Assembly (NCBI GenBank): GCA_963785725.1
Contig: CAWAWS010000006.1
Span: 1 to 64,000 of the forward strand
Direction of reading: 5' to 3'
Source of the DNA: an uncultured delta proteobacterium
Lineage (GTDB): Bacteria; Myxococcota_A; Polyangia; Palsa-1104
Length of the DNA: 64,000 nucleotides
In this document: piece after piece, positions 25,900-43,900 of the stretch
How the letters are laid out: every line of letters starts with the position of its first letter
Numbering within the stretch: position 1 is the stretch's first letter
Program-made: the position numbers and the translations under genes
The notes under the pieces: model-generated
What the model saw: the letters and a program-made list of their open reading frames with translations, nothing else
Told to the model about the DNA's origin: nothing
Database searches by the model: none

Positions 25900-27732
25900 T
25901 TACTTCGCGGGCGTGCCGAGGACGAGCAGGTGGCCGTTGTTGAGGGCGAAGATGTGGCCCTTGCCGTCGAGCGCGACCGGCGTATAGGCGGCCGCGACGG
26001 CCTGGTCGAGGAAGTAGACCGCCTTCTGCTGGCCGTGCTTGTCGACGATGTAGAGGTTGCCGTCCTCGCTGTTGCCGTAGACGTTGCCGTCCTTGTCGAT
26101 GGCGGGCGCGTTGATGCACCACTCGAAGCCGTTCGGATGATCGCTGACGCAGCTGACTTGGCCGGTGGTGGCGTCGCGCGTGCACGTGTTGGTGTTGGTC
26201 GACTGGAACTTCCACTCGGGCTGTAAGTACTGGTTGAGCGACGTGATGTAGTAGGTGCCGTTGTCGGCGTAGCCGATGCCGTAGTGGTTGTCCTTGGTGA
26301 TGATCGAATACGTGCCGTCGTGGCTGTAGACGGCGGGCGTCACGTCCCAGCCGAAGTCGAAGCTGGTGAGGAACTTGCCGGTCGGCGAGAGCTTGACCAG
26401 GTGGCCGCGCTCCCCGTTGTAGTAGGTGAGGCCGCCGTAGAGGATGTTGCCGTCGGGGAGGACGACCGGCGTGGCCGAGGAGTCGTCGTCGGCGGCGATG
26501 GCGGGCGCTTTGCCGGTCCACGGATCGACGCCGAGCGGCGCGCCGAGGCGGCAGTCGCCGTTGGTGGCGTCGCCGTCGTCGGGCGTCAGCACGCCGCAGC
26601 CGTCGTGGACGAGGTCGCGCAACGAGCTGTTCCACTTGGGCTTCAAATCGTTGGTGACGGCGATGACGTACGAGTAGAACTCGTCGAAGTGCGCGTGGCT
26701 GACGGTGTAGACGGTGCCGTCGGGGCCGATGGCGGGCGCGACGTTGAGGCTCGGGCGCTGCGAGCCGCAATAGTACTGCAGCGGCTGCGGCACGGTGCCG
26801 TCGGCGTTCGGCGGCGGCGGCCACGGCAGCGGGTAGACGCTCGAGTCGAACGTGTAGTCGCACAAGTCGGTGCCGGCGGGCGCGCCCGGGGTCAGCGTCT
26901 TGTAGTCGACCGAGGTGACGTGATCGTCGGGCGTAATCTTGGTCAGCGTGCCGACGGCGTCGTAGCTCCACTCGTTGCCGGTGACCATCGTCAGCTGGTT
27001 GAAGAAGATGTTGCCGTGGCTGTCGGCGACGAGCGGGCCGGCGACGTAGGTGTCGGAGCCGGGGTACGCGATGACGTTGGGCTGCGTCGCGTTGGTCTTC
27101 GTGATCATGGGCGTCGGCGGCGTCGTCGGCGGGACGGCCTTGGCCAGCTGCGCCAACAGCTGACCGCTATGGCGATCGAGCTTGTAGACCGAGCCTTGCG
27201 CGCCCGGCACGTAGATGAACGGGCCGGAGACGACGGCGTGGAAGACCGGCTCGAAGCCGACGGAAGGCTCCGGCTTCCAGTCGCTGGTGAAGGTCCAGTC
27301 CTTCGTCAGCTTGCCGTCGCTGCCGAGCGTGTAGTGGACCTCGTTCCAGATCTGCTGGTCCTGCGAGGCGAGGCCGCAGCCGGCCGGCGTGCCCGAGCCC
27401 GGCGGGTCGCAGGCAATGTAGTTGCCGGTCTTGATCTCCATATAGACGTCGTCGCCGACGACGAGCGGGACTTGGTAGTGCACGATGATGCCGAAGCTGT
27501 CGGCGGCGATGGCGTCGGCGAACGGATCGTACGTGATGTCGTCGAACGTCTTGGTCGGCACGACCGGGCTGCCGCAGCTGTCGCCGGTGTGGGTCGAGTT
27601 TTGTCCCCATTGCGGCCAGCCGCAGGCTGGCTCGCCGCCGGTGCTGCCGTTGCCGCCGCCGTTACCGCCACAACCGATGAAGGCCGTGACCAACCCGATT
27701 ACGCCGAACGCCCGAGCGTAGGAGTGTCTCAT
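25900..27732 (-). CDS. PQQ/BamB-like beta-propeller lipoprotein, paralogue 1
   Basis: Lipobox 'AFIGC', 'WPQWGQN..H.G', 'PAIGPDGTVY', 'PAIDKDGNVY..SEDG.LY'. Confidence 0.8.
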   Translation of the reverse strand: MRHSYARAFGVIGLVTAFIGCGGNGGGNGSTGGEPACGWPQWGQNSTHTGDSCGSPVVPTKTFDDITYDPFADAIAADSFGIIVHYQVPLVVGDDVYMEIKTGNYIACDPPGSGTPAGCGLASQDQQIWNEVHYTLGSDGKLTKDWTFTSDWKPEPSVGFEPVFHAVVSGPFIYVPGAQGSVYKLDRHSGQLLAQLAKAVPPTTPPTPMITKTNATQPNVIAYPGSDTYVAGPLVADSHGNIFFNQLTMVTGNEWSYDAVGTLTKITPDDHVTSVDYKTLTPGAPAGTDLCDYTFDSSVYPLPWPPPPNADGTVPQPLQYYCGSQRPSLNVAPAIGPDGTVYTVSHAHFDEFYSYVIAVTNDLKPKWNSSLRDLVHDGCGVLTPDDGDATNGDCRLGAPLGVDPWTGKAPAIAADDDSSATPVVLPDGNILYGGLTYYNGERGHLVKLSPTGKFLTSFDFGWDVTPAVYSHDGTYSIITKDNHYGIGYADNGTYYITSLNQYLQPEWKFQSTNTNTCTRDATTGQVSCVSDHPNGFEWCINAPAIDKDGNVYGNSEDGNLYIVDKHGQQKAVYFLDQAVAAAYTPVALDGKGHIFALNNGHLLVLGTPAK

Positions 27733-27987: not shown

Positions 27988-29727
27988 CTAATCGCCGCCG
28001 AGCACCATCAAGTGGCCGCTGTTGAGCGCGAAGATGCGGCCTTTGCCGTCGAGCGCGACCGGCGTGTAGGCGGCGGCGATCGCTTGATTGAGGAAGTACG
28101 ACGTCTTCAAGTTTCCCGCCTTGTCGAGCACGTACATGTTGCCGTCTTCGCTGTTGCCGTAGATGTTGCCGTCGGCGTCGACGGCGGGCGCGTTGATGCA
28201 CCACTCGAAGCCGTTGGGGTGATCGTCGACGCAGCTGAGCGTGCCCGCGGCGTCGCGCGTGCAGTCTTTGGTGTTCGTCGATTGATACGTCCACTCCGAC
28301 TGCAAGAAAGAATTGAGCGAACGAATGTAATAGGTGCCCTGATCGTTGTAATCCTGCCCATAAAGATTGTCTTTGGTGATGATCGAATACGTATTGTCGT
28401 GTACTTGAATCGCCGGCGTCACGTCCCAGCCAAACGGATAATTGGCGAGATATTTGCCATTGGGATCGAGCTTTAAGAGGTGACCGCCGTAGTCGTTATA
28501 AAAGGTCAGGCCGCCGTAAAGGATGTTGCCGTCGGGCAAGACCACCGGCGTCGACGAGGAGCTGTCGTCGACGGCGATGGCCGGCGGCTGGCCGGTCGCG
28601 GGATCGACGCCCATGGGCGCGCCGAGGCTGCAGTGCGTGCCCAGCATTTGGCCGTCGCTCGGTGACAAAACGCCGCAGCCGTCATTGACGAGGTTGCGCA
28701 GCGACGTGGCCCATTTGGGCGTCATTTGCGGCGTCACGGCGATGACGTAGCTGTACTGCGTGTTGAAGTGCGCGTGGCTGGCCGTGTAAATCGTGCCGTC
28801 GGGGCCGATGGCGGGCGCGATGTTGATGCCCGGCCGCTGCGTGCCGCACGCACTTTGCACCGGCTGCGGAATCGAGCCGTCGGCGTTCGCCGGCGGCGGC
28901 CACGGCAGCGGATAGAGCGTGCTGTCGTAGCCGACGGTGCATAAATCGGACGCCAGCGGCGCGTCGGGCACGAGCAAGCGATAGTCGATCGTAAGCGTGG
29001 TGTCATCGGGCCGCAGCTGCACGAGCATGCCCGAGCCGTCCTGGTTCCACGGATCGGCGGCGTTCAAGGTGAGCACGTTGTAGTAGACGTTGCCTTTGGC
29101 GTCGGCGACGACCGGGCCGGCGACGAAGTCGACGTCTCCGGCGCCCGGCGTGGTCGCGGAACAGCGCTGCACCAGCTTGCCGCTCTTGCGATCGACTTTA
29201 TCGACGGCGCCGTTGGCGGCCGGAATGTAAATGAACTTGCCGAAGACGGCGGCGTGGAAGACGGGCTCGAAGATGTTGGGCGACTGCTCGGGCTTCCAGT
29301 CGCTCGCATACGTCCAGTCGCGCGTGAGCTTGCCGTCGTCGCCGATCTTGAAGTGCACTTCGTTCCAGATCTCCTGGTTCCACGAGGCCCAGCCGCAGCC
29401 GGCCGGCATGTCGTTCGTGCCCGGCATACACGCCGTATAGCTGCCCGTCTTCAGCTCGACATAGACGTCATCGCCGACGATGAGCGGGACTTGGTAGTGC
29501 GTCGTCAGCCCGAAGCTGCCCGCCACTTCCGGCTGCACGAACGGATCGTAAGTGAAGTCGTCGAGCGTCTGGGTCGGCAATTGACCGACGACGCAGCTCG
29601 AGTCGTTGTGAATGGCGCTCTGTCCCCACTGCGGCCAATCGCCGCACGTCGATGCCGGCAGCCCGCTCGAGTTACAGCCGAGCGCACTCGCGACGGCACA
29701 GAATGCGAGAGCATGAGAAGATCGCAT
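27988..29727 (-). CDS. PQQ/BamB-like beta-propeller lipoprotein, paralogue 2
   Basis: Lipobox 'ALGC'; long blocks near-identical to 25900-27732 (e.g. 'DHPNGFEWCINAPA', 'AAAYTPVALDGKG'). Confidence 0.8.
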   Translation of the reverse strand: MRSSHALAFCAVASALGCNSSGLPASTCGDWPQWGQSAIHNDSSCVVGQLPTQTLDDFTYDPFVQPEVAGSFGLTTHYQVPLIVGDDVYVELKTGSYTACMPGTNDMPAGCGWASWNQEIWNEVHFKIGDDGKLTRDWTYASDWKPEQSPNIFEPVFHAAVFGKFIYIPAANGAVDKVDRKSGKLVQRCSATTPGAGDVDFVAGPVVADAKGNVYYNVLTLNAADPWNQDGSGMLVQLRPDDTTLTIDYRLLVPDAPLASDLCTVGYDSTLYPLPWPPPANADGSIPQPVQSACGTQRPGINIAPAIGPDGTIYTASHAHFNTQYSYVIAVTPQMTPKWATSLRNLVNDGCGVLSPSDGQMLGTHCSLGAPMGVDPATGQPPAIAVDDSSSSTPVVLPDGNILYGGLTFYNDYGGHLLKLDPNGKYLANYPFGWDVTPAIQVHDNTYSIITKDNLYGQDYNDQGTYYIRSLNSFLQSEWTYQSTNTKDCTRDAAGTLSCVDDHPNGFEWCINAPAVDADGNIYGNSEDGNMYVLDKAGNLKTSYFLNQAIAAAYTPVALDGKGRIFALNSGHLMVLGGD

Positions 29728-29831
29728 CTACATCGTTTAACACGGGCGCCGGCGCATTCGGAATGACCGCCGGCACCTCGGTGGCCGCGGCGCCGACGGT
29801 TGAGGTACGATGTCGCGGAGAGGGTGAGACG

Positions 29832-30263
29832 ATGAATCGGATCTTGGTCGGGCTCGATGGCTCGGAGAGTGAGCGTCACGTGCTGGAGACGGCGGTGTCG
29901 CTGGCGTCGCGGATGGGCGGACGACTGGTGCTGTTCCGCGCGGTGTCGCTGCCGATCGGCTTGCCGGCGCAAGCGCTGGCGCTGTCGCCGGACAACGTCG
30001 GCACTCTATTGGCCGACGGCGCGCTGCAGCACTTGGAGGCGCTGGCCAAGACGCTGCCGGTCGACCTCGTCGAGCGCGTGCAGGTGGAGATGGGTGTCGC
30101 CTGGCGCGCCGTGTGCGACGCGGCCGAAGCCGACAACGCCGACCTCATCATCATCGGCTCGCACGGCTATGGCGGCATCGATCGCCTCATCGGCACGACC
30201 GCCGGCAAGATCGTCAATCACGCCACCTGCTCCGTCTTGGTCGCGCGCAAATCCGCTTCATGA
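29832..30263 (+). CDS. Universal stress protein
   Basis: 'RILVGLDGSE', 'ADLIIIGSHGYGGIDRLIGTTA.KIVNHATCSVLV'. Confidence 0.93.
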   Translation: MNRILVGLDGSESERHVLETAVSLASRMGGRLVLFRAVSLPIGLPAQALALSPDNVGTLLADGALQHLEALAKTLPVDLVERVQVEMGVAWRAVCDAAEADNADLIIIGSHGYGGIDRLIGTTAGKIVNHATCSVLVARKSAS

Positions 30264-30348
30264 AACTCCCGTAACAGAATCGATAACTATTAACGGGATT
30301 GTTAACCAACGCGATGGCTTGGTCGCGCGCGCGGCTCCGTCCGCGCGG

Positions 30349-32298
30349 CTAGAGGTCGATCTGCATGCCGAGCTCGACGACTTGCTCGGGCGGCAGGTTG
30401 AAGTAGGCGGTGGCGCTGGCGGCGTTCTTGTAGAGGAACGAGAAGATCGACTCGGGAATCCGGCTCATCTCGCCCTTCGCCGTCGCCAAGAACGTCTCGT
30501 GGCCGAGGAAGAAGGCCATGTCGGACACGTCGAGGTCCATTCCGGCGGCGGCGGCGGCGCGGCACAAGCGATCGGGAATGTGCGGCTTCTCCATGAAGCC
30601 CGAGTGCACGATGATGCGATGGAAGCCGGCGTCGAGCTTCTCGACCGAGCCGGTGTCCTCGACGGGAACCCGCGGCTTGCGATCGGTGATGACGGTGAGC
30701 AGGATGACGCGCTCGTGCAGCGATCGCGCGGCGCGCACGTAATGCTCGAGCACGGCCGGGATGCCGGTGAGCTGCGCCGTGAAGAAGACGGCCGTGCCGG
30801 GCACGCGCGCGCCGCAGCGGTGGCTCAGCTCGCGCACGAACTTGTCGACGGGCGGCGCGCTGGCGTTCAGGCGGCGGATGAGGACGGTGCGGCCGCGGCG
30901 CCAGACCATCATGACGGTGAAGATGATGCTGGCGACCAAGATCGGCACATAGCCGCCGTCGACGAACTTGAGCAGGTTGGCGCCGAAGAACGGCAGATCC
31001 CAGCAGAAGAAGAGGATGAGCAGCGGCAGCGCCTTCCAGAGCGGCCACTTCCAGTCTCGGCGCATGACGACGAAGTAGACGACGCTGGTGATGCCCATCG
31101 TGCCGGTGACGGCGATGCCGTACGCGGACGCGAGCCGGCTCGACTCGCGGAAGCCGAGCACCAGCGCCATGCAGCCGATCGCGAGGGCCCAGTTGATCCG
31201 AGGACGTAGATCTGCCCCTCGGTGTGGCTCGACGTGTGCTTGATGGTGACGCGCGGGAAGTAGCCGAGCTGCACCGCCTGGTGCGTGAGCGAGAAGGCGC
31301 CGGAGATGAGCGCCTGCGACGCGATGACCGTCGCCACCGTCGACGAGCGCCGACGAGCGCGTAGGTCGAGCGCGCCCGCGGGCACCATGGCGAAGAACGG
31401 GTTCGCCGCCGGCGTCCGGCGTCGCGCAAGAGCAGCGCGCCCTGGCCGAAGTAGCTGAGCACCAGCGCCGGCATCGACGAGCGCGAGCCAGGCGAGGCGG
31501 ATCGGGGCGCGCGCCGAAGTGGCCCATGTCGGCGTAGAGCGCCTCGCCGCCGGTGACGGCGAGGACGACCGAGCCGAGGACGATGAACGCCGCGCATGCC
31601 GTGGCGCAGCGAAGAAGTGCGACGCGCGTGCAGCGGCGACGAGCGCGCCAGGACGCGCGGGATCGCGCGCGATGTGCCAGGCGCCGAGGGCGCCGATGGA
31701 GACGAACCACAGCGACCATGATGGGGCCGAAGAACTTGCCGATGCCGCCCGTGCCGCGGCTCTGGATGGCGAAGAGCCCGACGAGGATGACGCAGGTGAT
31801 GGGCACGACGTACGGCTTGCAGCTCGGGCGCGGCGACCTCGAGGCCCTCGATGGCGCTGAGCACGGAGATGGCGGGCGTGATGATGCCGTCGCCGTAGAG
31901 CAGCGCGGCGCCGAACGAGGACGATGGCGGCCAAGAAGGTCGTGCCGCTCTTGCTCGTTGCGCAGCGTTCGGGCACGAGCGCGAGGAGCGCGAGGATGCC
32001 GCCTTCGCCGTGGTTGTCGGCGCGCATGATGAACGTGAGGTACTTGACGGTGACGACCATCGTCAGCGCCCAGAAGATGAGCGACAGGACGCCGTAGACG
32101 TTCTCGGGCGACGCGCGGCACGCCGTGCTCGCTCGAGACGCACTCCTTGAGCGTGTAGAGCGGGCTCGTGCCGATGTCGCCGAAGACGACGCCGAGCGCG
32201 CCCAGCGCCAACATGCGCAGTTGGCTGCCGTGCACCGTATGCGGATGCGAATGCGCTGCTGAGGAATCGGCCGTCGCGGGCGGGGCGGACGTGGACAT
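30349..32298 (-). CDS. kup: KUP/HAK/KT potassium uptake protein (many frameshifts in 31200-32120)
   Basis: '[18 protein letters not shown]', '[13 protein letters not shown]', '[14 protein letters not shown]', '[10 protein letters not shown]', '[10 protein letters not shown]', '[10 protein letters not shown]'. Confidence 0.9.
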
Positions 32299-32311
32299 GG
32301 GTGGCGGCAGC

Positions 32312-34021
32312 TTACTTGTTCGTGGCCTTCGGTGCGAGTGACGGCGGCCGCGGTAACAGGAAGTTCACAGCCAGCGCCGCGACGACGACGACGACACAGC
32401 CGACGACGTTGTACCAAAGGTAGGTCCAGCTCGTGAGCCAGAACGTCGCGAAGACGCAGACTTGCCCGATGAGCGTGGCGATGAACACCGGCGTGGCGCG
32501 GATGAATTTGGCGAAGAAGGCGATGAGGAAGACGCCCAACATCGGGCCGTAAAAGAGCGAGCCCAAGATGTTGACGGCCTGGATGAGGTTGTCGAGCTGC
32601 GCGGCGAAAGCGGCGAAGGCGACGGCGAGCAGGCCCCAAAAGACGGTGAACCATTTGGCGGCGTTCAGGTAGGTGCGATCTTCGCGGTTGGGCTGCCACA
32701 AGCGGTAGAAGTCGACGACGCTGGTGGAGCCGAGCGAGTTGAGCGCGCTGGCCGTCGCCGACATGGCCGCGCAGACGATGACGGCGAGCAAGAGGCCGAT
32801 GAGGCCGCTCGGAAATTGGCTCATGACGAAGCCGATGAAGATGTAATCCTGATCCTTGATGTCGCTGCCGCGCGTCTCCGCGAGCAGCTTCTTGGCGCGC
32901 GTGCGCACGGCGTCGGTGGCCGCGCCGCCGGCGCGCAATTCGTCGGCGGCGCTGGCTTTGCGCGCGTCGTCGGCGGTGGCGAGCGCGCTCGCGTAATGGT
33001 CGACCGCGAGCCGGCGCTGCGCGAAGGCCGCATCCCAGTCGGCGTCGAGCCGGCGCGCGTCGGCGGCGCGCGGCCCCGTGTGCGCGCGCTGCCATTCGCC
33101 TTGGTTGAAGAAGAGCGGCGGCTGGTGAAAGAGATAGAACACGAAGAGCAAGACGCCGACGAACAGGATCATGAACTGCATCGGCAGCTTCAAGATGCCG
33201 TTGAACACGAGGCCCAGGCGCGACTCCGTCAGCGACGCGCCGCCGAGATAGCGCTGCACCTGCGACTGATCGGTGCCGAAGTAGGCGAGCGCGACGAAGA
33301 GGCCGCCGGTCATGCCCGACCAGAACGTGTAGCGCCGGTCGAAGCGCCAGGCGTAGTCGACGATCTTCATCTTCCCGAGCGCGCCCGCCAAGTGCACGGC
33401 GTGGTCGAGCGAGAGATCCGCCGGCAATTGCCGGCGAATGAAGAAGAACGCCAGCGCCATGCCGGCGAGCATCACGATCATCTGGAACGTCTGCGTGCGG
33501 CTGACGACGCGCGTGCCGCCGGACACGGTGTACACGATCGTCACCGAGCCGATGACGAGGTTCGTCCACTGCAGCGGCCAGCCGAGCACGGTCGACAGCA
33601 CGATCGCCGGCGCGTAGATCGACACGCCCGCCGCCAAGCTGCGCGAGACGAGGAACAGGATCGCCGTCAATTGCCGCGTCTTGCGATCGAAGCGCTGCTC
33701 CAAGAATTCGTAGGCGGTGTAGACCTTCAAGCGATAGTAGAGCGGCAAGAAGAACGCCGACAGGATCACCATCGCGACCGGCAGGCCGAAGTAGAACTGC
33801 AGAAAGCCCATGCCGTCTTCGAACGCTTGGCCGGGCATCGATAGGAAGGTGATGGCGCTCGCTTGCGTGGCCATGATCGAGAGGCCGATCGTCCACCAGC
33901 GCAGATCGCGGCCGCCGCGCAGGTAGACGTCGCTCGTCTTGGCGCCGCGATCGCGCCAGCTGCCGTAGCCGACGATGGCGGCGATGGTGCCGACGAGCAC
34001 GATCCAGTCGAGTAACTTCAT
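32312..34021 (-). CDS. Sodium:solute symporter (SSS) family protein
   Basis: '[24 protein letters not shown]', '[11 protein letters not shown]', '[13 protein letters not shown]'. Confidence 0.93.
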
Positions 34022-34200
34022 CGAGTCTCCTGCGGAGCTCGATGAGGAGGATGGTCGATCCGCTGGCCCTACGGGCCGGACGCTCACATTCGCTCGCTGG
34101 CGCTCGCTCATCGAGTCTCCTGCGGAGCTCGATGAGGGGATGGTCGATCCGCTGGCCCTACGGGCCGGACGCTCACATTCGCTCGCTGGCGCTCGCTCAT
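34021..34200 (-). repeat. Two tandem 89/90-bp MIRU-like intercistronic units
   Basis: 34021-34110 and 34111-34199 are identical except one base; each starts ATGAGCGAGCGCCAGCGAGCGAA and ends GGAGACTCG-ATGA on the minus strand. Confidence 0.9.
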
Positions 34201-34331
34201 CGATAGAGCCAGGTGACGGCCGACAAGATCGCGATCAGGACGGCGAGCGTGCCCAAGACGAACGCGTACATGCCGCGCCAGCTGCGAAAGAACGGCGGCT
34301 TGTCGTTCTCGGCCAGTGGCTCAGTGGCCAT
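34197..34331 (-). CDS. Small single-TM protein (44 aa) upstream of the SSS gene
   Basis: MATEPLAENDKPPFFRSWRGMYAFVLGTLAVLIAILSAVTWLYR*; start overlaps the PIG-L 3' end; below the ORF-track cutoff. Confidence 0.7.
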   Translation of the reverse strand: MATEPLAENDKPPFFRSWRGMYAFVLGTLAVLIAILSAVTWLYR

Positions 34332-36855
34332 AGGAAATCAGGTTCGAAAAGAGCCGGTAGGCGCCGGGAATTCCCGCCGGCAGCTGCCGGAAGAAGCCGA
34401 GACCGGTGTAGATGAACGCGCCTTTGCCGTGCTTGGCGATGATGAGCGAGCCCAGCGCCGGCTTCTCGTCCTTGTCGTGCATGCTCAGCGGCGCCACGAA
34501 ATGCGCCGCGTCCCAGCCTTCGGCGAAGTAGAGGCCGCGCTCCTGCACCCAGCCGACCCAGTCGCGCGCGCCGAGCGGATTGGGCGTGTGCAGCACCGGA
34601 TGGTCCTTGGCGACGTCGACGCTCGCGTTCTCGTCGGTGACGCGGGTCTGCGAGATCGTGAACGCATACGGCCCGATGACCGGCACGTCGGACAGCCAAT
34701 TCTTCGTGTTGTACTGCACGAGCAAGGTCCCGCCCGCGGCCACGTAATCCATGAGCCGCTTGTGCACGACCTCCAGGCGCGGATTGACGTTGAACGCGCG
34801 CACGCCGACGACGATGGTCTCGAAGCGCGCCAACGAATCGTGCGCCAGCGCTTCGTCGTCGAGCAGCGTCACGTCGTAGCCGACTTGCCGCAGCGCCGCC
34901 GGCACGTCGTCGCCGGCGCCGGGAATGTAGCCGAGATGCGTGCGCGTCCGATGCAGCTCGAGGCGCACGACCTTGACCTCCGTCGCCGGCAAGATCGTCT
35001 GAATCGGAATGTGCGGATACTCGATGCGCGTCAAGGCATGCAGCGGCTGCGGCGACTGCCCATCGAGCGCGACCGTAAAATGAATGAGCGCGCTCGCGTC
35101 GGTCGTCTTGGCCGGCGGCTTGACGTGAAAGGCCAGCTCGGTCTCGACGCCGCGGCTCGCCAGCTCGACGCGCGCCGAGCCCGGCTCGACGGTCCAGCCC
35201 GCGGGCACGACCGGCGTAATCGTCGCTTTGATCGCGCCCGCCGTCTGCGCGCGCACCGTCAGCTTGAGCGCCTTGCCCTGCGCGTCGGGAAACATGAGCA
35301 GCGGCGCGCGCGGATTGGCCGTCAGCGGCGGCAAGATCTCGAGCGGCCGCACGCGCTCGCCCGCCACCGGATCGGTCCATTTGTAAGCGACCGGCCGCGT
35401 CACCGTAAACGGCACATTGCCGACGGTAAACTGAAACTCGGCCGCGATCGGCGCCGGCTCTTCCGGCCGTCCGATGAGCGTCTGCTCGCTGACCGTCCAA
35501 TGGCCCGGCGACGGCGGCTCGGCCAGCCAATAGGGCGTCGTCAGCCGCTCCGGCGTCTTCGCCGTCGCCGGCTGCGTCCACGGCTGATTCGTCGGCAGCG
35601 GCTTGTCGACGCCGATCGTCCGCTCGCCCAGCCGCACGCTGCGCAACGTCAACGCCGCGTGCGAACGATTGAGCGCGGTCAACGTCAGCTTCACGTCGCC
35701 GCTCGCCGGCGCCGACGACTCGCCCGCGCTGGCGTCGACGTAGAGCCCGGCGCAGGCCGCGATGACGTCGCCGATTTCGGCGCGCTTGGCCGCCTTCCAC
35801 GGCGAATCCGCGAGCGCGTCGAGCGCCGCCGCCGCCTGCGCCAACAGCGGCACGCTCGCCGCCGGATCGCTCGACTTCCACTCGGCGCGCGCCTGCGCCA
35901 GCAGCTTCTGCAGCTTGTCACTGCCGGCGACGCGCGCCCACGTCAGGTTCACGCCGTCGAAGATCGAGCCCGACGTCATCGGCGCGCCGGCCAGCAGCTT
36001 GAAATATTCGTTGGCCGGTCCGCGCTGCGGCGCCGCGCCGAAGCCTTGGCTCTTGTGCATGCTGCGGCTCGTCGCCGCCATCTCGCCGTACGACACGCCC
36101 AGCGACGGGTTGTAGCCGCCGACATCGAGCTTGGCGTAGCTCGATAGATCTTCGCCCGCCGGCACGCCGCCGAAGAAGCCGCGATTCCACACGATGCGCT
36201 TGGCCTGCCACGGCGATACGCCCAGCTTTTGCCACTCGGGGTGATAGCTCTCGTCCGCCGCCAGCTTGAACGCCGCCAGCGCCAGCTGCGCCGACGCGGT
36301 GTGATGGCCGTGCGTGTCGCGACCGTCGGGCGCGAAGCGCGTCACGATGACGTCCGGCTGAAAACGCCGCACCGCCCACACGACGTCGGCCAAGATCGTG
36401 TCGCGATCCCAGATGCTCAGCGTCTCTTCCGGCGTCTTCGAGTAGCCGAAGTCGCGGGCGCGCGAGAACAGCTGCTCGCCGCCGTCGACGCCGCGCGCCG
36501 CCAACAGCTCCTGCGTGCGAATGACGCCGAGCAGCGGCTGCAGCTCACCGCCGATCAAATTCTGCCCGCCTTCACCGCGCGTCAGCGACAAATAGGCCGT
36601 GCGCACCAGCTTGCCGTTGCGCAGCCAGCTCAGCATGCGCGTGTTCTCGTCGTCGGGATGGGCCGCGACGTAGAGCACGTTGCCGACGACGCCGAGCCGC
36701 TCGACGGCGCGCTCGAGCTCGCCCGCGTTCGGCTGCCGGAAGGGCGCGGCCTCGGCGCTCATGCCGATCCCCAAGACCACGACGCAGCAACCGACGAGCG
36801 CGCAGCCCAACGCGCTCCCTCTCGCAAGCAGGGTGGTACCTGACGGAGCGCGCAT
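34321..36855 (-). CDS. Long-form PIG-L/LmbE family deacetylase with probable signal peptide
   Basis: 'LYVAAHPDDEN', 'LTRGEGGQN', 'IRTQELLAAR', 'DFGYSK', 'HGHH'; C-terminal 'GYIPGAGD...LVQYN...WVQERGLYF'; hydrophobic N-terminus ending AEA. Confidence 0.9.
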   Translation of the reverse strand: MRAPSGTTLLARGSALGCALVGCCVVVLGIGMSAEAAPFRQPNAGELERAVERLGVVGNVLYVAAHPDDENTRMLSWLRNGKLVRTAYLSLTRGEGGQNLIGGELQPLLGVIRTQELLAARGVDGGEQLFSRARDFGYSKTPEETLSIWDRDTILADVVWAVRRFQPDVIVTRFAPDGRDTHGHHTASAQLALAAFKLAADESYHPEWQKLGVSPWQAKRIVWNRGFFGGVPAGEDLSSYAKLDVGGYNPSLGVSYGEMAATSRSMHKSQGFGAAPQRGPANEYFKLLAGAPMTSGSIFDGVNLTWARVAGSDKLQKLLAQARAEWKSSDPAASVPLLAQAAAALDALADSPWKAAKRAEIGDVIAACAGLYVDASAGESSAPASGDVKLTLTALNRSHAALTLRSVRLGERTIGVDKPLPTNQPWTQPATAKTPERLTTPYWLAEPPSPGHWTVSEQTLIGRPEEPAPIAAEFQFTVGNVPFTVTRPVAYKWTDPVAGERVRPLEILPPLTANPRAPLLMFPDAQGKALKLTVRAQTAGAIKATITPVVPAGWTVEPGSARVELASRGVETELAFHVKPPAKTTDASALIHFTVALDGQSPQPLHALTRIEYPHIPIQTILPATEVKVVRLELHRTRTHLGYIPGAGDDVPAALRQVGYDVTLLDDEALAHDSLARFETIVVGVRAFNVNPRLEVVHKRLMDYVAAGGTLLVQYNTKNWLSDVPVIGPYAFTISQTRVTDENASVDVAKDHPVLHTPNPLGARDWVGWVQERGLYFAEGWDAAHFVAPLSMHDKDEKPALGSLIIAKHGKGAFIYTGLGFFRQLPAGIPGAYRLFSNLISYGH

Positions 36856-37142
36856 TCTGGCGTACCTTTCTTAGGCAGTGGCTTAGCGGGTGGCAAAGCG
36901 GAGATGGCCGACACTGATACCCGTCGTATCGCGATGGTCGCTTCAACGCCAGTCGATCTCGCGTTCGATCGAATGGCGCCGAGCGCGCGGTGAGCGCGTC
37001 GACGTGAAACACCGCAGCCGCGTAAAGGGTTGCCACAAAATGATCGTCGCGCGGGCGGAATATCGGATCGGCGGACGCAGTTTGTCGTTCGTGATCAACT
37101 GCGCCATTGGCAAGCGGCAAAGCCGTATTAAATAGACGAGCC

Positions 37143-38742
37143 GTGGCTGCCACCTTTTACGCGTCTTATCTCGCCGCCGGCATGAACGGCGGCGCGCTCT
37201 ATCCCGTCGGCTTCGGCGCGCGCGACGAACGCGTGACGCGCACGCGCGCCGCGGCGCAGCGTCCGCTCGCGCCCGGCATCCTCGCGCGGCTGCGCGCCGA
37301 CAACGAGCCGCTCGGCCCGAGCGACGCGGCGCGCCGCAACCTGGACGCGCTGGCGCAGCCGAACGTCGCGGTCGTCGTCACCGGCCAGCAAGTCGGCCTC
37401 TGTCTCGGCCCGCTCTACAGCATCTTCAAGGCGGCGACGGCGATCCGCGTCGCGCGCCAGCTGGAGGCGGAGTCGGGGGTCCGCTGCGTGCCGCTGTTTT
37501 GGCTGCAGACCGAAGATCAAGACTTCGACGAGATCGCCGCCTGTACGGTGCCGCGCCCCGACGGCGAGCTCATGACCTTGCGGCTCGACGACGATCCGCA
37601 ATTGGCGCGCGTTCCCGTGGCCGAGCGGCGCATCGGCCCGGGCCTGTCGCCGCAGCTCGACGCGCTCGCCGACGCGCTCGAGGCGCTGCCGTTCGCCGGC
37701 GAAACCATGGCTCTCTTGCGCGATCACTATCGACCGGGCCATTCGCCGGCGCGCGCGTTCGCCGGCGTCTTGACCGCGATCTTCGCCGACGACGGCCTGG
37801 TCGTGCTCGACCCGCGCAACGAAGTCGTGGCCGGCTTGGCCGCGCCCTTCATGCGCGCCGCCATCGTCGATCACGCGGCCATCGACGCGCTCTTGAGCCG
37901 AACGCGCCGCCGCGCTCGACGCCGCCGGCTTCGCCGAGCAGGTGCGCACGCGGCCGGGCTCGCCCTTGTGCTTCTTCCATCCCGCCGGCGCGCGCGGTCC
38001 GCGCCAGCGGCTGACCCACTGTAGCGGCGGCTTCGCCGTCGACGGCAGCGGCGAAGTCGTGACGGAGGCCGAGCTGCTGGCGACGCTGGCGCGCGATCCC
38101 TTGCGCTTCAGCTCGTCGGCGCTCTTGCGTCCGCTCGTGCAAGACACGATCTTGCCGACGGCGGCCTATGTCGGCGGTCCGGCCGAGGTCAGCTACTTCG
38201 CGCAGCTGGCGCCGCTCTACGCGCACTTCGGCATGACGCCGCCGATGCAAGCGCCGCGCGCGCGCTTTCGCTTACTCCCGCCGCATGTTCGCACGCTGTT
38301 GCAGACGCTCGGCCTGGCGGCGGCCGAGGTCGAAGGCGAGCGCGAGCCGCTGCTCGCGCGCCTGGCGCAACCGGCAGGCGAGCGCGCGCAGGCGCCGTCG
38401 CCGGCGTGGCTGACCGAGCTCGAGGCGCGCCTCGACGACTTCGCCGCGTCGCCCGACTTCACGCCCGCCCTGCGCAAGCCGCTCGAACGCACGCGCGCCG
38501 CCATCCACAAGAACTTCGGCCACCTCGTGCGCGCGCATCGCCATCAGCTGGCGACGCGCGACGCGACCTTGGCCGCGCGCGTCGATCGCCTGCGCCGCTG
38601 GATCTTTCCCGGCGGCGTGCCGCAGGAGCGCGTGCACGCGGCGCCGTATTACCTCGCGCTCGTCGGGCCGGCGGCGCTCGGTCGCGCGCTCGTCGCCGCC
38701 GTCGATCCGGCGCAGCCGCAAACCCGAGATTTGGCGCTATGA
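37143..38742 (+). CDS. bshC: Bacillithiol biosynthesis cysteine-adding enzyme (frameshift near 37900)
   Basis: 'VVTGQQVGL..GPLYSIFKA', 'VPLFWLQTEDQDFDEI', 'FSSSALLRPLVQDTILPT.AYVGGPAEVSYFAQL', 'P.GVPQERV'. Confidence 0.9.
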
Positions 38743-39851
38743 CGTCGATGAAGATCGGCATCACCTGCTTTCCCACCTTCGGCGGCAGCGGCATCATCGC
38801 CACCGAGATCGGCTTGCAGCTGGCGCGCCGCGGTCACGAGGTGCACTTCGTCTGCACGGCCATGCCCTGGCGCTTCGACGACGTGGCGCCCAACGTCCAC
38901 TTTCACGCCGTCGAGCAGCTGCAATATCCGCTCTTCGATCACAGCCCGTATACGCTGGCGCTGACCTCGAAGCTGGTGGCGGTGAGCGACGCCGTCGGGC
39001 TCGACCTCTTGCACGTGCACTACGCGATCCCGCACGCGGCGAGCGCCTACTTGGCGCGACAGATCTTGGGCCCGCGCGCGCCGAAGATCATCACGACGCT
39101 GCACGGCACCGACATCACCGTCGTCGGCAGCGATCCGTCGTTCCTGCCGATCACGCGCTTCGCCATCGAGCAGTCGGACGGCGTGACCGTGCCGTCGGAG
39201 GATCTCAAGCGCTCGACCCATTCGTTGCTCGGCGTCGACGCCAACAAGGCCATCGAGGTCATCCCCAACTTCGTCGACACCGAGATGTATCGGCCGGCGC
39301 CGCGCGATCGGCAGCGCCCGCCGACGGTGGTGCACAACTCCAACTTCCGGCCGCTCAAGCGCGTCGACGACGTGGTGCGCGTGTTCGCGCAGGTGCGGCG
39401 CGCCTGCGACTGCCGGCTCGTCCTCATCGGCGACGGCCCCGAGCGCGACCGCGTCGAGCGGCTGGTGCACGAGCTCGGCCTCGGCGGCGACGTGCGCTTC
39501 TTGGGCGAGCAGCTGCACGTGGCGCCGATCCTGCGCGAGTGCGACGTGTTCCTCTTGCCCAGCGTCACCGAGAGCTTCGGACTGGCGGCGCTGGAGGCGC
39601 TGGCGAGCGGCGTTCCCGTCGTGGCCACGCGTGCCGGCGGTCTGCCCGAGGTCGTGCACGAAGGCGAGAACGGCCTGCTCGCCGCCGTCGGCGACGTCGA
39701 CGCGATGGCCGCCGCCGTCTTGCGCCTCTTGACCGACGCGCCGCTGCACGCGCGCATGGCGGCCGCGGCCCGCGCCGGCGCCGAAGCGCACTATCGCCGC
39801 GACCCGCTGGTCCAGCGCTACGAAGACTATTACCGCCGCGTTCTCGGCTGA
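38739..39851 (+). CDS. bshA: N-acetyl-alpha-D-glucosaminyl L-malate synthase
   Basis: 'KIGITCFPTFGGSGIIATEIG', 'LHVHYAIPHA', 'ITTLHGTDIT', 'HNSNFRPLKR', 'ESFGLAALEA'; ATGA-coupled to bshC. Confidence 0.95.
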   Translation: MTSMKIGITCFPTFGGSGIIATEIGLQLARRGHEVHFVCTAMPWRFDDVAPNVHFHAVEQLQYPLFDHSPYTLALTSKLVAVSDAVGLDLLHVHYAIPHAASAYLARQILGPRAPKIITTLHGTDITVVGSDPSFLPITRFAIEQSDGVTVPSEDLKRSTHSLLGVDANKAIEVIPNFVDTEMYRPAPRDRQRPPTVVHNSNFRPLKRVDDVVRVFAQVRRACDCRLVLIGDGPERDRVERLVHELGLGGDVRFLGEQLHVAPILRECDVFLLPSVTESFGLAALEALASGVPVVATRAGGLPEVVHEGENGLLAAVGDVDAMAAAVLRLLTDAPLHARMAAAARAGAEAHYRRDPLVQRYEDYYRRVLG

Positions 39852-39924
39852 TCGACGAACGGAAGCGCGCGGCCGCTCGCAGCGCGCGCGTGAGGGGCGA
39901 CGCCGCCGCTAAGTCAACGCCTGT

Positions 39925-40785
39925 TTACTTGGACTTCCAGTCGTTCAGCGCCTTCTTGACGTCGTCCTTGCCGCCGTATTTGTCGGCCGGCAGCGCCGAG
40001 CCCAGCTGATCGGCCTTCTGCGCCAGCGGCAGCGCCTGCTTGTAGTTGCCCTTGGCCGCCAACAGCTGCGCCTTGGTCCAATCGTTGTTCCACACTTCAC
40101 CGATGGCGATCGAGCGATCGACGAGCTCGAGGCCGGCGTCGTAATCCTTCTTCTGCTCGAGCATGTAGCGCGCCGCCTGGTTGAACGGCGACCACGCCGT
40201 GTCCTCGGCCGTCTTGACGATCGCCGCCACCTGCGCGTCCGTGCCCAGCTTCACCGGCAACGCGATGCGCACCCGCTCCCATTCGAGCACCAGCGCGACC
40301 GCGTTCTGCACCGCGAAGTCGTCGAACGAGTAGGCGAGCCGCTCCTTGTGCGCGATCGGGATCGGCTTGACGTCGACGCGAACCAGATCCTGGTCCGCCT
40401 TGTAGGCGAACGCGCCCGGCTGCACCGGATCCTTGTTGACGATGAAGGTCCAATTGCCCTGCTTTTGCGGGATGACGAAGATCGAGTAGCTGCCGGCCGG
40501 CACCTTCGTCGTGCCGATGGTGACCTCGCGGCTCACCGTCAGCTTCGTCGACAAGTTGGCGCCGGCGCGCCAGACCTGCCCGTATTGCACGACGTTGCCC
40601 CAGATCTTGCGGCCGTTGACGCGCGGGCTCGAGTAATCGACCGTCAGCTCGGTCAGCCCGACCGTCTGCGACACTTTGGCGAACGGGCTCGCGCGCGGCA
40701 GATCGATCTGCTGCGCCTGCGCCACGCCGTTCATACAGATCGCGCTCAGCGCGACCGCGAATACCGACGACAACAGAGTCTTCAT
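39925..40785 (-). CDS. DUF2911 domain protein with C-terminal TPR-like helices
   Basis: Signal peptide; 'PRASP...QTVGLT...VDYSSP...GRKIWG..V.YG.VWRAGAN'. Confidence 0.88.
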   Translation of the reverse strand: MKTLLSSVFAVALSAICMNGVAQAQQIDLPRASPFAKVSQTVGLTELTVDYSSPRVNGRKIWGNVVQYGQVWRAGANLSTKLTVSREVTIGTTKVPAGSYSIFVIPQKQGNWTFIVNKDPVQPGAFAYKADQDLVRVDVKPIPIAHKERLAYSFDDFAVQNAVALVLEWERVRIALPVKLGTDAQVAAIVKTAEDTAWSPFNQAARYMLEQKKDYDAGLELVDRSIAIGEVWNNDWTKAQLLAAKGNYKQALPLAQKADQLGSALPADKYGGKDDVKKALNDWKSK

Positions 40786-40985
40786 GGGCAAATTCCTCCT
40801 CGGGAAAGCCAAACGACACAAGTCAGGCGTGAACAGAAAACCGGAGCGCGGCGGCGAGTTCGCGCCATTCGTGCACGCGCCGGTCGGCTCTGCGTTTACC
40901 GCCGCCGGCGCGTCGCCGCAAGGGCCGCCGAAGGCCGTTGTCGCGGCGACGAAAGTATGAAATCCTCGTGTGCGGACAGCTCCGC

Positions 40986-43900
40986 GTGGCACACGACAAC
41001 ATCGCCGAGGCGCCGTTTCTCGGCTCCAGTCGCTTCGCCATCCAGCGCCGGCTCGGCATGGGCGGCATGGGCGTCGTCTATCAAGCGTTCGACCGCGAGC
41101 GCAACCAAGTGGTCGCGCTCAAGACCTTGCGCGACATGGACGCGGCGACGGTGGTGCGCTTCAAGCGCGAGTTCCGCGCGCTCGCCGACGTCAGCCATCC
41201 CAACCTCGTGTCGCTGTACGAGCTGGTGGCGATCGAGACGCACATCTTCTTCACGATGGAGCTGGTGCCGGGCGTGTCGTTCTTACGCTGGGCGCGCGGC
41301 GGCGGCGAGGACGATCCCGATCCGCTCGACGGCGACACGGTCGAATTGTCGGAGATCGTCGTCGACGCGCCCGAGACCGACTCGACCGAGCCCGGCAAGC
41401 GCGGCCACTTGACGCCGCGACCGCGGCCGGCGCGCCCGAGAGCGGCGCCGGTCTCGTCGGCGCCGCCGGCGCAGCTCGATCTGGCGCGCCTGCGTCCGTC
41501 GCTGATGCAGCTGGCCGAGGGCGTGGCCGCGCTGCACGCGTTCGGCATGCTGCACCGCGATCTCAAGCCGTCGAACGTCATCGTGACCCGCGACGGGCGC
41601 GTCAAGATCCTCGACTTCGGCTTGGTGACCGACCTGACGGGCGAGGCCGGCGTCGAGGACGCGCTCGTCGGCACGGCCGCGTACATGTCGCCCGAGCAGG
41701 GCGCGCGCCTGGCGCTGACGCCGGCCAGCGACTGGTACGCCGTCGGCGTCATGTTGTACGAGGCGCTGACCGGCCGCTTGCCCTTCGTCGGCTCGTCGAC
41801 GGACGTGCTCATGGACAAGCAGCAGTTCGAGCCGCCGTCGCCGCGCGAGCTCGTGTCCGACGCGCCGCAAGATTCTGACGGCGCTGTGCGTCGAGCTCTT
41901 GCGCCGCGATCCGTCGCTGCGTCCGCTCGGTCGCGAGGTCTTGCGCCGGCTCGGCTCGGGCACGGCGGCGATTCGCACGGCGACCGGGCGCTCGTCGTCC
42001 CGCTCGAGCGTGTTCGTCGGCCGCGAGGCGCACTCGGACGCGCTGGAAGCGGCGCTCGCCGAAGTCCGCCGCGGCAAAGCCGTGGTCGAGTTCGTGCACG
42101 GCACGTCGGGCATGGGCAAGAGCGCGCTCGTGCGCCGCTTCTTGGACGCGCTCGAGGAGGACAAAGCCGCCGTCGTCTTGACCGGCCGCTGCTACGAGCG
42201 CGAGTCGGTGCCGTACAAAGCGGTCGACAGCCTCGTCGACGGGCTGAGCCAATATTTGTCGCGTCTGCCGCGGCTCGACTGCGAAGGGCTGATGCCGCGT
42301 GACGTGCGCGCGCTGGCCCGTGTTTTCCCGGTCTTGCGCCAAGTGGAAGCGGTGACGGCGGCGCCGCGGCGCGCCGCCGATCCGACCGACAAACAGGAGC
42401 TGCGCCGGCGCGCCTTCGAGGCCTTGCGCGAGCTGTTGGCGCGGCTGGCCGATCGCAGCCCGCTCGTCCTCTCCATCGACGACGTGCAGTGGGGCGACGT
42501 CGACTCGGCCGTACTCTTGGCGGCGCTCTTGCGTCCACCGGATGCGCCGGCGCTGCTCTTGGTCGCCACGCATCGCAGCGAGGACACGACCGAGTCGACG
42601 TTCTTGCGCGCCTTCAAGGCCGAGCTGGCCCGCCAAGGCAACGACGTGCGCGACCTGCCCGTGGGACCGCTTGCGCCCGACGACGCGCGGCAATTGGCGC
42701 TCATGCTGCTGCACGCCAACGGCGCGCAGGCCGAGGCGCAGGCCGAACGCATCGCCGAGGAGGCCGCGGGCAGCCCCTTCTTCATCGACGAGCTGGCGCG
42801 TCACGTCCGCGAAGGCGAGCCGGCGACGCCGGAGATGATTCTCGCTCGACGAGGTGCTGCGCGCGCGCCTGCGCCGCCTGCCCGACGACGCGCGCCGCCT
42901 GCTCGCCGCCGTCGCCGTCGCCGGCCGACCGCTGCCGCTGGCCGTCGCCGAGCGCGCCGCCGAGCTCAACGATCAGTCGGCGCTGGCGCTGCTCAAGGCC
43001 GGCAGCCTGGTGCGGGCGCGCGGCGCGTCGGAGGCGCCGCTCGTCGAGTGCTGGCACGATCGCATCCGCGAGACGGCGCTGGCGCTGCTCGATGCCGGGC
43101 AGCTGCGCTGGTTCCACCTGCGCTTGGCCATCGCGCTGGCGTCGACGCCGCAGCCGGACGCCGAGGCGCTCGCCAACCACTTCTTGGGCGCGGGCGAGAT
43201 CGAGCGCGCCGCCGAGTTCGCCGCCGACGCCGCCGCGCGCGCCGAGGAGACGCTGGCGTTCGAGCGCGCCGCGCAGCTCTATCGCTTCGCGCTCGAGCTG
43301 AGGCCCCCCAAGACGATCGATCGCGCCGTCGAGCGCGCGCTGCAGGTTCGCCTCGGCGACGCGCTGTCCAACGCCGGGCGCGGCGCGGAGGCGGCGTCGT
43401 CGTACATCGATGCCGCCGCCGGCGCGACCGCGGCCGAGACGCTCGATCTGCATCGCCGCTCGGCGCAGGAGCTCTTGCGCGCCGGCCACATCCGCGAAGG
43501 CGTGCTGGCGCTGCAAGACGTGCTCGCTCACGTCGGCATGAAGCTGGCCAAGACGCCGGCGGCGGCCGTGGCTTCGCTGCTCTTTAGGCGCGCGCGGATT
43601 CGACTGCGTGGCCTCAACTGGCGCGAGCGCGACGTCACCCAAGTGCCCGCCGATCAGCTGACCCGCGTCGACGTCGCCTACACGCTGACGTCGGGCTTGG
43701 GGATGGTCGACATGGTGCGCGCCGCCGACTTTCAGGCGCGGCAGCTGCAATTGGCGCTCGACGCCGGCGAGCCGCACCGCATCGTGCGTGCGCTCGCCGC
43801 CGAGGCCGCGTTCTTGTCGACGGGCGGCGTCGCCGCCGCCGGGCGCAGCGCCGCCGTGCTCGTGCGCGTGCACGCGCTGGCCAAGCGGCTGGCGACGGCC

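Follow-up and report, generated by a model that had tools for sequence, protein, structure and literature searches.

The PIG-L/LmbE enzymes BshB, Bca, MshB and Mca are cytoplasmic, single-domain proteins of ~220–300 aa that stand alone. In Gram-negative bacteria, glutathione (GSH) is salvaged by a periplasmic gamma-glutamyltranspeptidase, and carriers of the SSS family can have small partners with a single transmembrane (TM) segment, such as MAP17 with SGLT2 and YjcH with ActP. Passages of the review PMC5790435 report the export of GSH to the periplasm of Escherichia coli and describe BshB1 as the bacillithiol (BSH) deacetylase and BshB2/Bca as an enzyme that is also an S-conjugate amidase. 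Here, we analysed a 64,000-nt stretch of DNA from an uncultured delta proteobacterium (assembly GCA_963785725.1, contig CAWAWS010000006.1, positions 1 to 64,000; hereafter the window), in which a long PIG-L/LmbE protein with a signal-type N-terminus, a micropeptide, an SSS symporter and a DUF2911-TPR protein are encoded around the bacillithiol genes bshC and bshA (Table 1). Judging from gene content and gene order, this module very probably belongs to bacillithiol-pathway metabolism.

The co-occurrence of the long PIG-L protein with bsh genes repeats in three phyla in which the latter are patchy. Among 301 genomes of the phylum of the window, the long PIG-L protein was present in 35 and BshC in 33, with both in 33. 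The PIG-L-positive exceptions without BshC were G269, where BshA lies at the very start of a contig, and G111, which showed only a 32%-identical paralogue and no BshA over the cut-off. In Verrucomicrobiota (141 genomes), the protein was found in six genomes, BshA in seven and BshC in one (G575); all six PIG-L genomes (6/6) had BshA, and the PIG-L-negative ones carried it in 1/135 cases, namely in G575, the sole carrier of a canonical BshC. Regarding Acidobacteriota (116 genomes), a PIG-L-like protein was detected in 61, BshA in 78 and both in 56, and three of the five PIG-L-like genomes without a BshA match had BshC over the cut-off, which brings those with a bsh marker to 59 of 61; this sample includes one unpublished genome (G673, positive for both), without which the counts are 60, 77 and 55 of 115. 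Finally, 78 of 201 Bacteroidota genomes had PIG-L matches, about 55 of them near full length and the rest matching at both ends only, and BshC was present in 193; none of the eight BshC-negative genomes (0/8) had the PIG-L protein. An earlier reading of this locus (hereafter the sequence-only reading) had proposed a thiol salvage role and suggested profiling the long PIG-L protein against bsh genes and asking if the linkage was peculiar to this genome. Both outcomes favoured it, as few of the sampled genomes had the module but no bsh genes, and it was present in Myxococcota-like, Verrucomicrobiota, Acidobacteriota and Bacteroidota genomes. Among public sequences, the nearest homologues bore Polyangia/Myxococcales names.

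Gene order was analysed through a pattern scan with one genome per species, which gave 597 confirmed relatives, the best 80 loci of which were examined. These came mostly from Bacteroidota, with some from Myxococcota, Verrucomicrobiota and Acidobacteriota and one from Eisenbacteria. The symporter gene was found in 56/80 loci, on the same strand and <700 nt downstream of PIG-L in 49/80, and, when only the 69 loci whose sequence continues for at least 2 kb downstream are counted, it was present in 54. A DUF2911 gene lay near PIG-L in 43/80 loci. It was present in all the verrucomicrobial and most of the Myxococcota-type loci examined, and the DUF2911-TPR protein is the fourth conserved member of the module. 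In the 33 genomes of the window's phylum with both PIG-L and BshC, the two genes were on one contig and at most 7 kb apart in 29, being divergent within 400 bp in 20; in the remaining genomes they were 21 kb apart (G052) or on different short contigs (G124, G259, G261).

The bsh genes are embedded among those of the module in at least four distinct arrangements. The Myxococcota type, to which the window belongs, reads SSS<peptide<PIG-L<>bshC>(bshB1)>bshA<DUF2911. Two other loci (L095, L098) carry DUF2911>bshC>bshB1>bshA>PIG-L>SSS on one strand, and a locus from Aminicenantes (L076) has DUF2911>PIG-L>bshC>bshB1>bshA>SSS, also on one strand, with BshB1 at 253.3 bits and BshC at 495.8 bits. Six verrucomicrobial loci (L022, L087–L091) showed the order DUF2911>PIG-L>SSS>256-aa protein (mini-BshC-like)>short PIG-L>bshA, although in L022 no short PIG-L gene was observed ahead of bshA, after the gene for the 256-aa protein. 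In addition, bshA directly abuts PIG-L in the Acidobacteriota genomes G650, G687, G693, G759 and G761. All-against-all clustering of the open reading frames (ORFs) from 94 loci revealed that only PIG-L, SSS, DUF2911, BshA, BshC and BshB1 recur, together with antisense shadow ORFs. Gene order and co-occurrence led us to reject the possibility that module and bsh genes are neighbours by chance.

The ~256-aa proteins of the verrucomicrobial loci (L088:5883-6653 (-), L022:6419-7186 (+), L087:8486-9235 (+), L089:6530-7276 (-), L090:8876-9640 (+), L091:6475-7239 (-)) had no Pfam or NCBIfam match. They sit where BshC stands in other operons and carry BshC-like GQQ, DHD and GxGE motifs. Compared with BshC, BLASTP gave a colinear, weak alignment (E 0.06), and hhalign a probability of 44.8% with an E of 2.2e-4 over 66 columns. 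These proteins may be half-size relatives of BshC, which, if so, would explain the presence of BshA without BshC in these verrucomicrobial genomes.

The long PIG-L protein itself matched PF02585 with 50.1 bits (cut-off 28.2) over residues 61–195. Residues A65, H66, P67, D68, D69, E70, H182, G183 and H185, forming the motifs AHPDDE and HGHH, were invariant in 45 aligned sequences, and they agree with the His/Asp/His Zn ligands given for BshB in the corresponding passage of PMC5790435. All the aligned homologues (45/45) showed a signal-type N-terminus before AHPDDE, made up of a basic stretch followed by a hydrophobic run and a site of the AxA/AQ type, as judged by a hydropathy script and by eye, in line with the export that the sequence-only reading had proposed. 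The structural model of the protein (pLDDT 90.4, pTM 0.89) predicts a signal peptide, an LmbE domain (44–300), a helical linker, beta-sandwiches (371–631) and a GATase1-like domain (637–844). The LmbE domain resembled MshB 1q7t (Z 21.2, root-mean-square deviation 3.8, 242 residues), the BshB1 homologue BC1534 (2ixd, Z 18.8), LnmX and a diacetylchitobiose deacetylase (Z 18.8), and Foldseek gave an E of 1e-9 for its Rossmann-like LmbE fold. The GATase1-like domain matched STM3548 (Z 16.8) and also ThuA-like proteins, the GH42 oligomerisation domain and the Agd3 deacetylase domain; it has no conserved Cys and many invariant polar residues. The domain PF10633 was detected in some homologues.

The long protein is like BshB1, BshB2/Bca and MshB/Mca in its LmbE fold and in the AHPDD(E) and H-x-x-H motifs, and like BshB1 and BshB2/Bca in its bshA/bshC neighbourhood, the bond expected to be cut being the 2-N-acyl bond of a glucosamine glycoside. 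In contrast to these enzymes, it has 844 aa in four structural regions, with a signal peptide at the N-terminus, beta-sandwich domains (two to three) and a GATase1-like C-terminus, it is accompanied by a symporter, and its scores fall far below the equivalog cut-offs: 17.5 bits versus 182.5 for BshB1 (TIGR04001) and 41 bits versus 277.15 for Mca/Bca (TIGR03446). A second PIG-L form was also observed in Bacteroidota and Acidobacteriota, for which the profile matched at both ends only (LmbE and GATase1-like) in open frames of ~630–1080 aa (for example, G345:C41:5231-7309, G433:C1:2517557-2519680 and G736:C3); this form seems to be a paralogous family that differs in the central part of the protein.

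The symporter belongs to the SSS family (PF00474, 131.5 bits versus 22.8; TIGR00813, 216.9 bits versus 184). Its probable true start is at 34021 (MKLLDW), which gives a protein of 569 aa and agrees with the starts of its homologues in the alignment. The nearest solved relative was SiaT (5nv9, 139.9 bits), with SiaT, SMVT and SMCT1 at 138–140 bits; these three and NIS together ranged from 132 to 140 bits, compared to 86–112 bits for the SGLT glucose carriers. The symporter therefore appears closer to carriers of carboxylates and acid sugars than to the neutral-sugar SGLTs, a weak hint of an acidic substrate. SiaT, SMVT and SMCT1 share the SSS fold family with it and transport organic anions or carboxylated sugars, a description that GlcN-malate would also fit, with the reservation that the match reaches only about 140 bits and concerns the sequence as a whole, and that the carrier of the window has a partner peptide of ~40 aa.

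This putative partner is encoded by a small ORF with one TM helix that ends at the start of the symporter gene in 47 of the 49 PIG-L>SSS junctions. In an alignment of 32 rows from four phyla, one Pro, W18 and Y22 were invariant, and no consistent match was found in Pfam. A model of the complex between symporter and micropeptide reached a score of 0.76, compared to 0.00 for the best control, a mark attained by 116/157 solved complexes and by 2/215 mismatched pairs; as the model used its own alignments, this calibration is only rough, and a memory effect from known pairs of SSS carriers and small partners is possible. At least 94% of the contacts agreed between runs, with a partner pLDDT of at least 73, and the predicted interface comprised carrier residues 74–89, 209–221 and 265–283. 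The model supports binding of the micropeptide to the symporter. As in the case of MAP17 and YjcH, this would be a tiny membrane protein encoded with, or bound to, an SSS carrier, a likeness at the level of description. In Chitinophagales-type loci, a second small ORF of ~50–70 aa with two hydrophobic stretches was observed between PIG-L and the micropeptide (L012:12507-12683, L035:12418-12573, L038:12435-12599, L041:11476-11658 and others, (+)).

The fourth member matched PF11138 with 155.2 bits (cut-off 27), and its homologues showed signal-type N-termini in an alignment of 18 rows. Its model (pLDDT 85.2) predicts a beta domain followed by three TPRs, for which VIA-align found structural matches with Z of about 14–15. 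For the beta domain, there was no sequence match in the PDB and no Foldseek match at E below 0.001, and VIA-align matched the C-terminal TPR part only.

Concerning what the module does, extracytoplasmic hydrolysis of bacillithiol-type compounds, coupled to the import of a glucosamine-malate (GlcN-malate) core for re-use by BshC, is the reading that fits best, if a tentative one. The substrate would be bacillithiol disulfide (BSSB), S-conjugates, free BSH or GlcNAc-malate that had reached the periplasm, and hydrolysis would take place at the 2-N-acyl bond of glucosamine, like that by Bca/Mca or BshB. Together with its peptide subunit, the symporter would import the anionic sugar product, the GlcN-malate core would be re-used by BshC, and the DUF2911-TPR protein might assist in some way. 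As a cytoplasmic BshB is usually present, a periplasmic GlcNAc-malate deacetylase would add little to it. This redundancy would not apply to an exported amidase releasing GlcN-malate from BSH, BSSB or conjugates. In addition, GlcN-malate would be usable only by cells with BshC, which fits the phyletic pattern. This proposal is that of the sequence-only reading minus its K+ arm. With the periplasmic salvage of GSH by gamma-glutamyltranspeptidase it would share a logic, that is, a thiol in the periplasm, an exported hydrolase and the re-import of fragments, whereas the two are not homologous and differ in chemistry and in carrier, and for bacillithiol the steps are putative. More speculatively, double-membraned bacillithiol users may run an extracytoplasmic bacillithiol cycle, in which the thiol, its disulfide or its conjugates would exit, the long LmbE amidase and the DUF2911-TPR protein would cleave them, and the two-subunit SSS carrier would return the core.

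Several observations weigh against the assignment of the module to the bacillithiol pathway and against its role in salvage. Of the 69 loci that extend at least 2 kb downstream, 15 had no symporter gene next to PIG-L, and no conserved exporter that would bring bacillithiol species to the periplasm was found among the 94 loci. In the Acidobacteriota genomes G731 and G743, the PIG-L-like protein was present and neither of the markers BshA and BshC was detected, and BshA was present in 22/55 PIG-L-negative genomes of this phylum, so that 22 of its 78 BshA-positive genomes lack the module. In the Bacteroidota loci seen, the module was not adjacent to bsh genes, about 115 of the 193 BshC-positive genomes were without it, and, as BshC is near-universal there (193/201), co-occurrence in this phylum is uninformative. 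Since many bsh-positive genomes lack the module, it must be considered accessory. Moreover, Fisher values overstate the significance of the co-occurrence because related genomes are not independent, and genes in one cluster share gains and losses irrespective of what they do. Finally, the genome of the window and nine other BshC-positive genomes lack a BshB1 equivalog, which fits biosynthesis as well as salvage.

This last point is the core of an alternative that we consider unlikely, in which the long PIG-L protein would be an alternative BshB, at least in the lineages without BshB1. Deacetylation of GlcNAc-malate would then take place outside the cytoplasm, and the symporter would bring GlcN-malate back in for BshC. 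The genome of the window (G000; 8.9 Mb, 88%-complete) showed four PIG-L matches, which are the long protein of the window and three short paralogues (C14:52252-52635, C18:174041-174382, C39:136133-136501), and no BshB1 equivalog was detected in it, the best score being 68.8 bits versus the cut-off of 182.5. One of the short paralogues has an N-terminal hydrophobic segment, and two adjoin glycosyltransferase or WbqC-like genes. Over the 301 genomes, BshB1 exceeded the cut-off in 23, all within the 33 BshC-positive ones and usually encoded right after bshC. The other 10 of these 33, G000 among them, all keep the long PIG-L protein and have bshC>bshA operons without an intervening bshB, and the LmbE active-site motifs of the long protein are intact, in keeping with this alternative. 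Against it, the homologues have signal-type N-termini whereas BshA and BshC are cytoplasmic, and BshB1 coexists with the long protein in 23/33 genomes, in the same operon in L076, L095 and L098; for these two reasons the long protein is not simply BshB. In addition, the export and re-import of a biosynthetic intermediate would be a costly detour, and the three short paralogues of G000 could serve instead; other LmbE paralogues are known to substitute in Bacillus and Staphylococcus aureus (PMC5790435). The view of the sequence-only reading that the long protein is not BshB is supported by its score below the BshB1 equivalog cut-off and by the usual coexistence of BshB1, with the reservation that no BshB1 equivalog was found in G000, where a biosynthetic role is possible; the separate bshB for which it suggested searching the genome has three short PIG-L candidates, none of them a BshB1 equivalog.

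A second alternative, to which we likewise give little credit, is that the module scavenges an unrelated nutrient containing GlcNAc or an acidic sugar, such as chito-oligosaccharides or cell-wall fragments, its proximity to bsh genes being due to a shared glucosamine/UDP-GlcNAc pool or to hitch-hiking. The separate location of the Bacteroidota module loci would fit this, and so would the similarity of the LmbE fold to diacetylchitobiose deacetylases, the resemblance of the GATase1-like domain and beta-sandwiches to accessory domains of glycoside hydrolases and Agd3, the presence of PF10633 in some homologues and the two Acidobacteriota with the protein in which no bsh marker was found. Nevertheless, nutrient scavenging does not account for the near-exclusive co-occurrence with bsh genes in the three phyla where these are patchy, nor for the interleaving of module and bsh genes in single operons in at least four independent gene orders, and no glycoside hydrolase or sugar kinase recurred in the ORF clustering of the 94 loci.

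It also seems improbable that the module serves piracy, taking up bacillithiol or precursors of it that other organisms release, instead of recycling those of the cell itself. The evidence for salvage applies equally to piracy, which is compatible with the lack of a conserved exporter; the organisms are soil and water bacteria that live among BSH producers, and near-identical contigs were found in soil metagenomes. Yet, if the thiol came from uptake alone, modules in genomes without bshC or bshA would be expected as well, and these were rare (2/35 in the phylum of the window, 0/6 in Verrucomicrobiota and 2/61 in Acidobacteriota). Lastly, a coupling of the thiol module to K+ uptake through Kup, with Kup restoring K+ as the sequence-only reading had it, is hardly credible, for although the kup gene follows the symporter gene on the same strand after a 13-bp gap, and PMC5790435 reports gating of the K+/H+ antiporter KhtSTU by BSH adducts in Bacillus, kup was beside the module in 0/80 related and 0/14 further loci, the local copy matches its model in six pieces over three frames and two other kup copies exist in the genome, so kup is a bystander outside the conserved module.

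The coordinates of the features are collected in Table 1.

Table 1. Features of the bacillithiol-associated locus in the window.
Feature	Position	Strand	Profile match or remark
kup	30349-32298	-	PF02705 in three stretches and PF22776; frame-broken, bystander
SSS symporter	32312-34021 (ORF open back to 34111)	-	PF00474, TIGR00813
Tandem duplication with ~90-bp unit	34018-34203		Between micropeptide stop and SSS start
Single-TM micropeptide, 44 aa	34197-34331	-	Predicted symporter partner
Long-form PIG-L/LmbE protein, 844 aa	34321-36855	-	PF02585; zinc-hydrolase type, signal-type N-terminus
Divergent spacer PIG-L/bshC	36856-37106		From gene coordinates
bshC (cysteine-adding enzyme)	37107-38742	+	TIGR03998 in two pieces, frameshift near 37899
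bshA (GlcNAc-malate synthase)	38739-39851	+	TIGR03999
DUF2911-TPR protein	39925-40785	-	PF11138

The six genes listed by the sequence-only reading were all recovered at their positions, and the absence of a short BshB from the window was confirmed, the long protein being the sole PIG-L match on this contig. The divergent layout that it described also holds, with a spacer of 251 bp instead of ~290 bp when TTG 37107 is taken as the start of bshC. Its tightly packed minus-strand run is correct for the gap between SSS and kup and not for the junction between micropeptide and SSS, which is not tightly packed here because the 90-bp tandem duplication separates the micropeptide from the SSS start. 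The DUF2911 gene directly after bshA, the frameshift in bshC, the frame switches in kup and the tandem duplication had been overlooked. In the profile search, bshA reached 490.6 bits with TIGR03999 (cut-off 273.7); its ATG overlaps the TGA of bshC (ATGA), and the micropeptide ORF overlaps the PIG-L stop by 11 nt. No RNA motif was matched in an Rfam scan of the spacer region (36700–37300), and no conserved motif appeared when the divergent spacers of nine loci were aligned. Scanning of 29800–41200 revealed no sigma-70-like promoter site and three terminator-like sites, fewer than in shuffled sequence. Regarding expression, no RNA data set was listed as containing this stretch.

The frame of two genes is interrupted in this assembly. 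The two ORFs of bshC matched TIGR03998 with 194.1 bits (model positions 5–262) and 162.6 bits (271–516), each under the cut-off of 265.8 and together covering positions 5–516 of 529, with one frameshift between them. In kup, the TIGR00794 match was distributed in such a way that at least five frame switches are required, with no stop codons; its ORF reached 252.9 bits versus a cut-off of 539.6, so there is no full-length match in a single frame, and two better-preserved kup copies were located on contigs C27 and C22 of the genome. Contigs from four soil-metagenome runs, 90–99% alike to the window and thus from related strains, showed single-base indels with respect to it at 31201, 31817, 31916, 31956/31964, 32115 and 37899. 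These coincide with the frame-switch sites of kup and bshC, the relatives lacking one base at 37899, which puts bshC in frame; therefore, neither gene is interrupted in the related populations. No homopolymer lies at the indel sites, and the breaks may be due to assembly error or to real mutation. The tandem duplication is near-exact and consists of two exact 66-nt copies and two exact 30-nt copies with a spacing of 89–90 nt. Its repeated part corresponds to codons 1–21 of the long SSS ORF, and a short palindrome resembling a hairpin lies within it. One related metagenome contig (X3 record 20) lacks the duplication, skipping 34024–34176.

Outside the cluster, two paralogous proteins of ~580–610 aa with signal- or lipoprotein-like N-termini are encoded upstream (25900–27732 (-) and 27988–29727 (-)), with only a weak PQQ_2/BamB-like match of 16.4 bits, under the cut-off. 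A gene for a Ser/Thr protein kinase follows the cluster in the window (40938–42302 (+)) and in the Aminicenantes locus (L076:18031-20544 (+)), where the kinase carries TPRs; this recurrence may be a coincidence.

In conclusion, no other low-molecular-weight thiols may be as widespread in bacteria as bacillithiol and its derivatives, as stated in PMC6282198, a paper that surveyed genomes for bshA-C and nmbA and makes no mention of the module. A search of open-access papers and bioRxiv found none that connects bacillithiol with DUF2911, with this symporter or with a long PIG-L protein that is exported. According to the review PMC5790435, import and export have not been established for either BSH or its disulfide. 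The module offers concrete candidates for this question, namely an exported hydrolase, a carrier with its partner peptide and the DUF2911 protein. If the reading proposed here is true, the very large uncharacterised family of long PIG-L proteins (2115 clusters at 50% identity, E below 1e-30) would acquire a role, and the symporter would be the first transporter assigned to the bacillithiol pathway.

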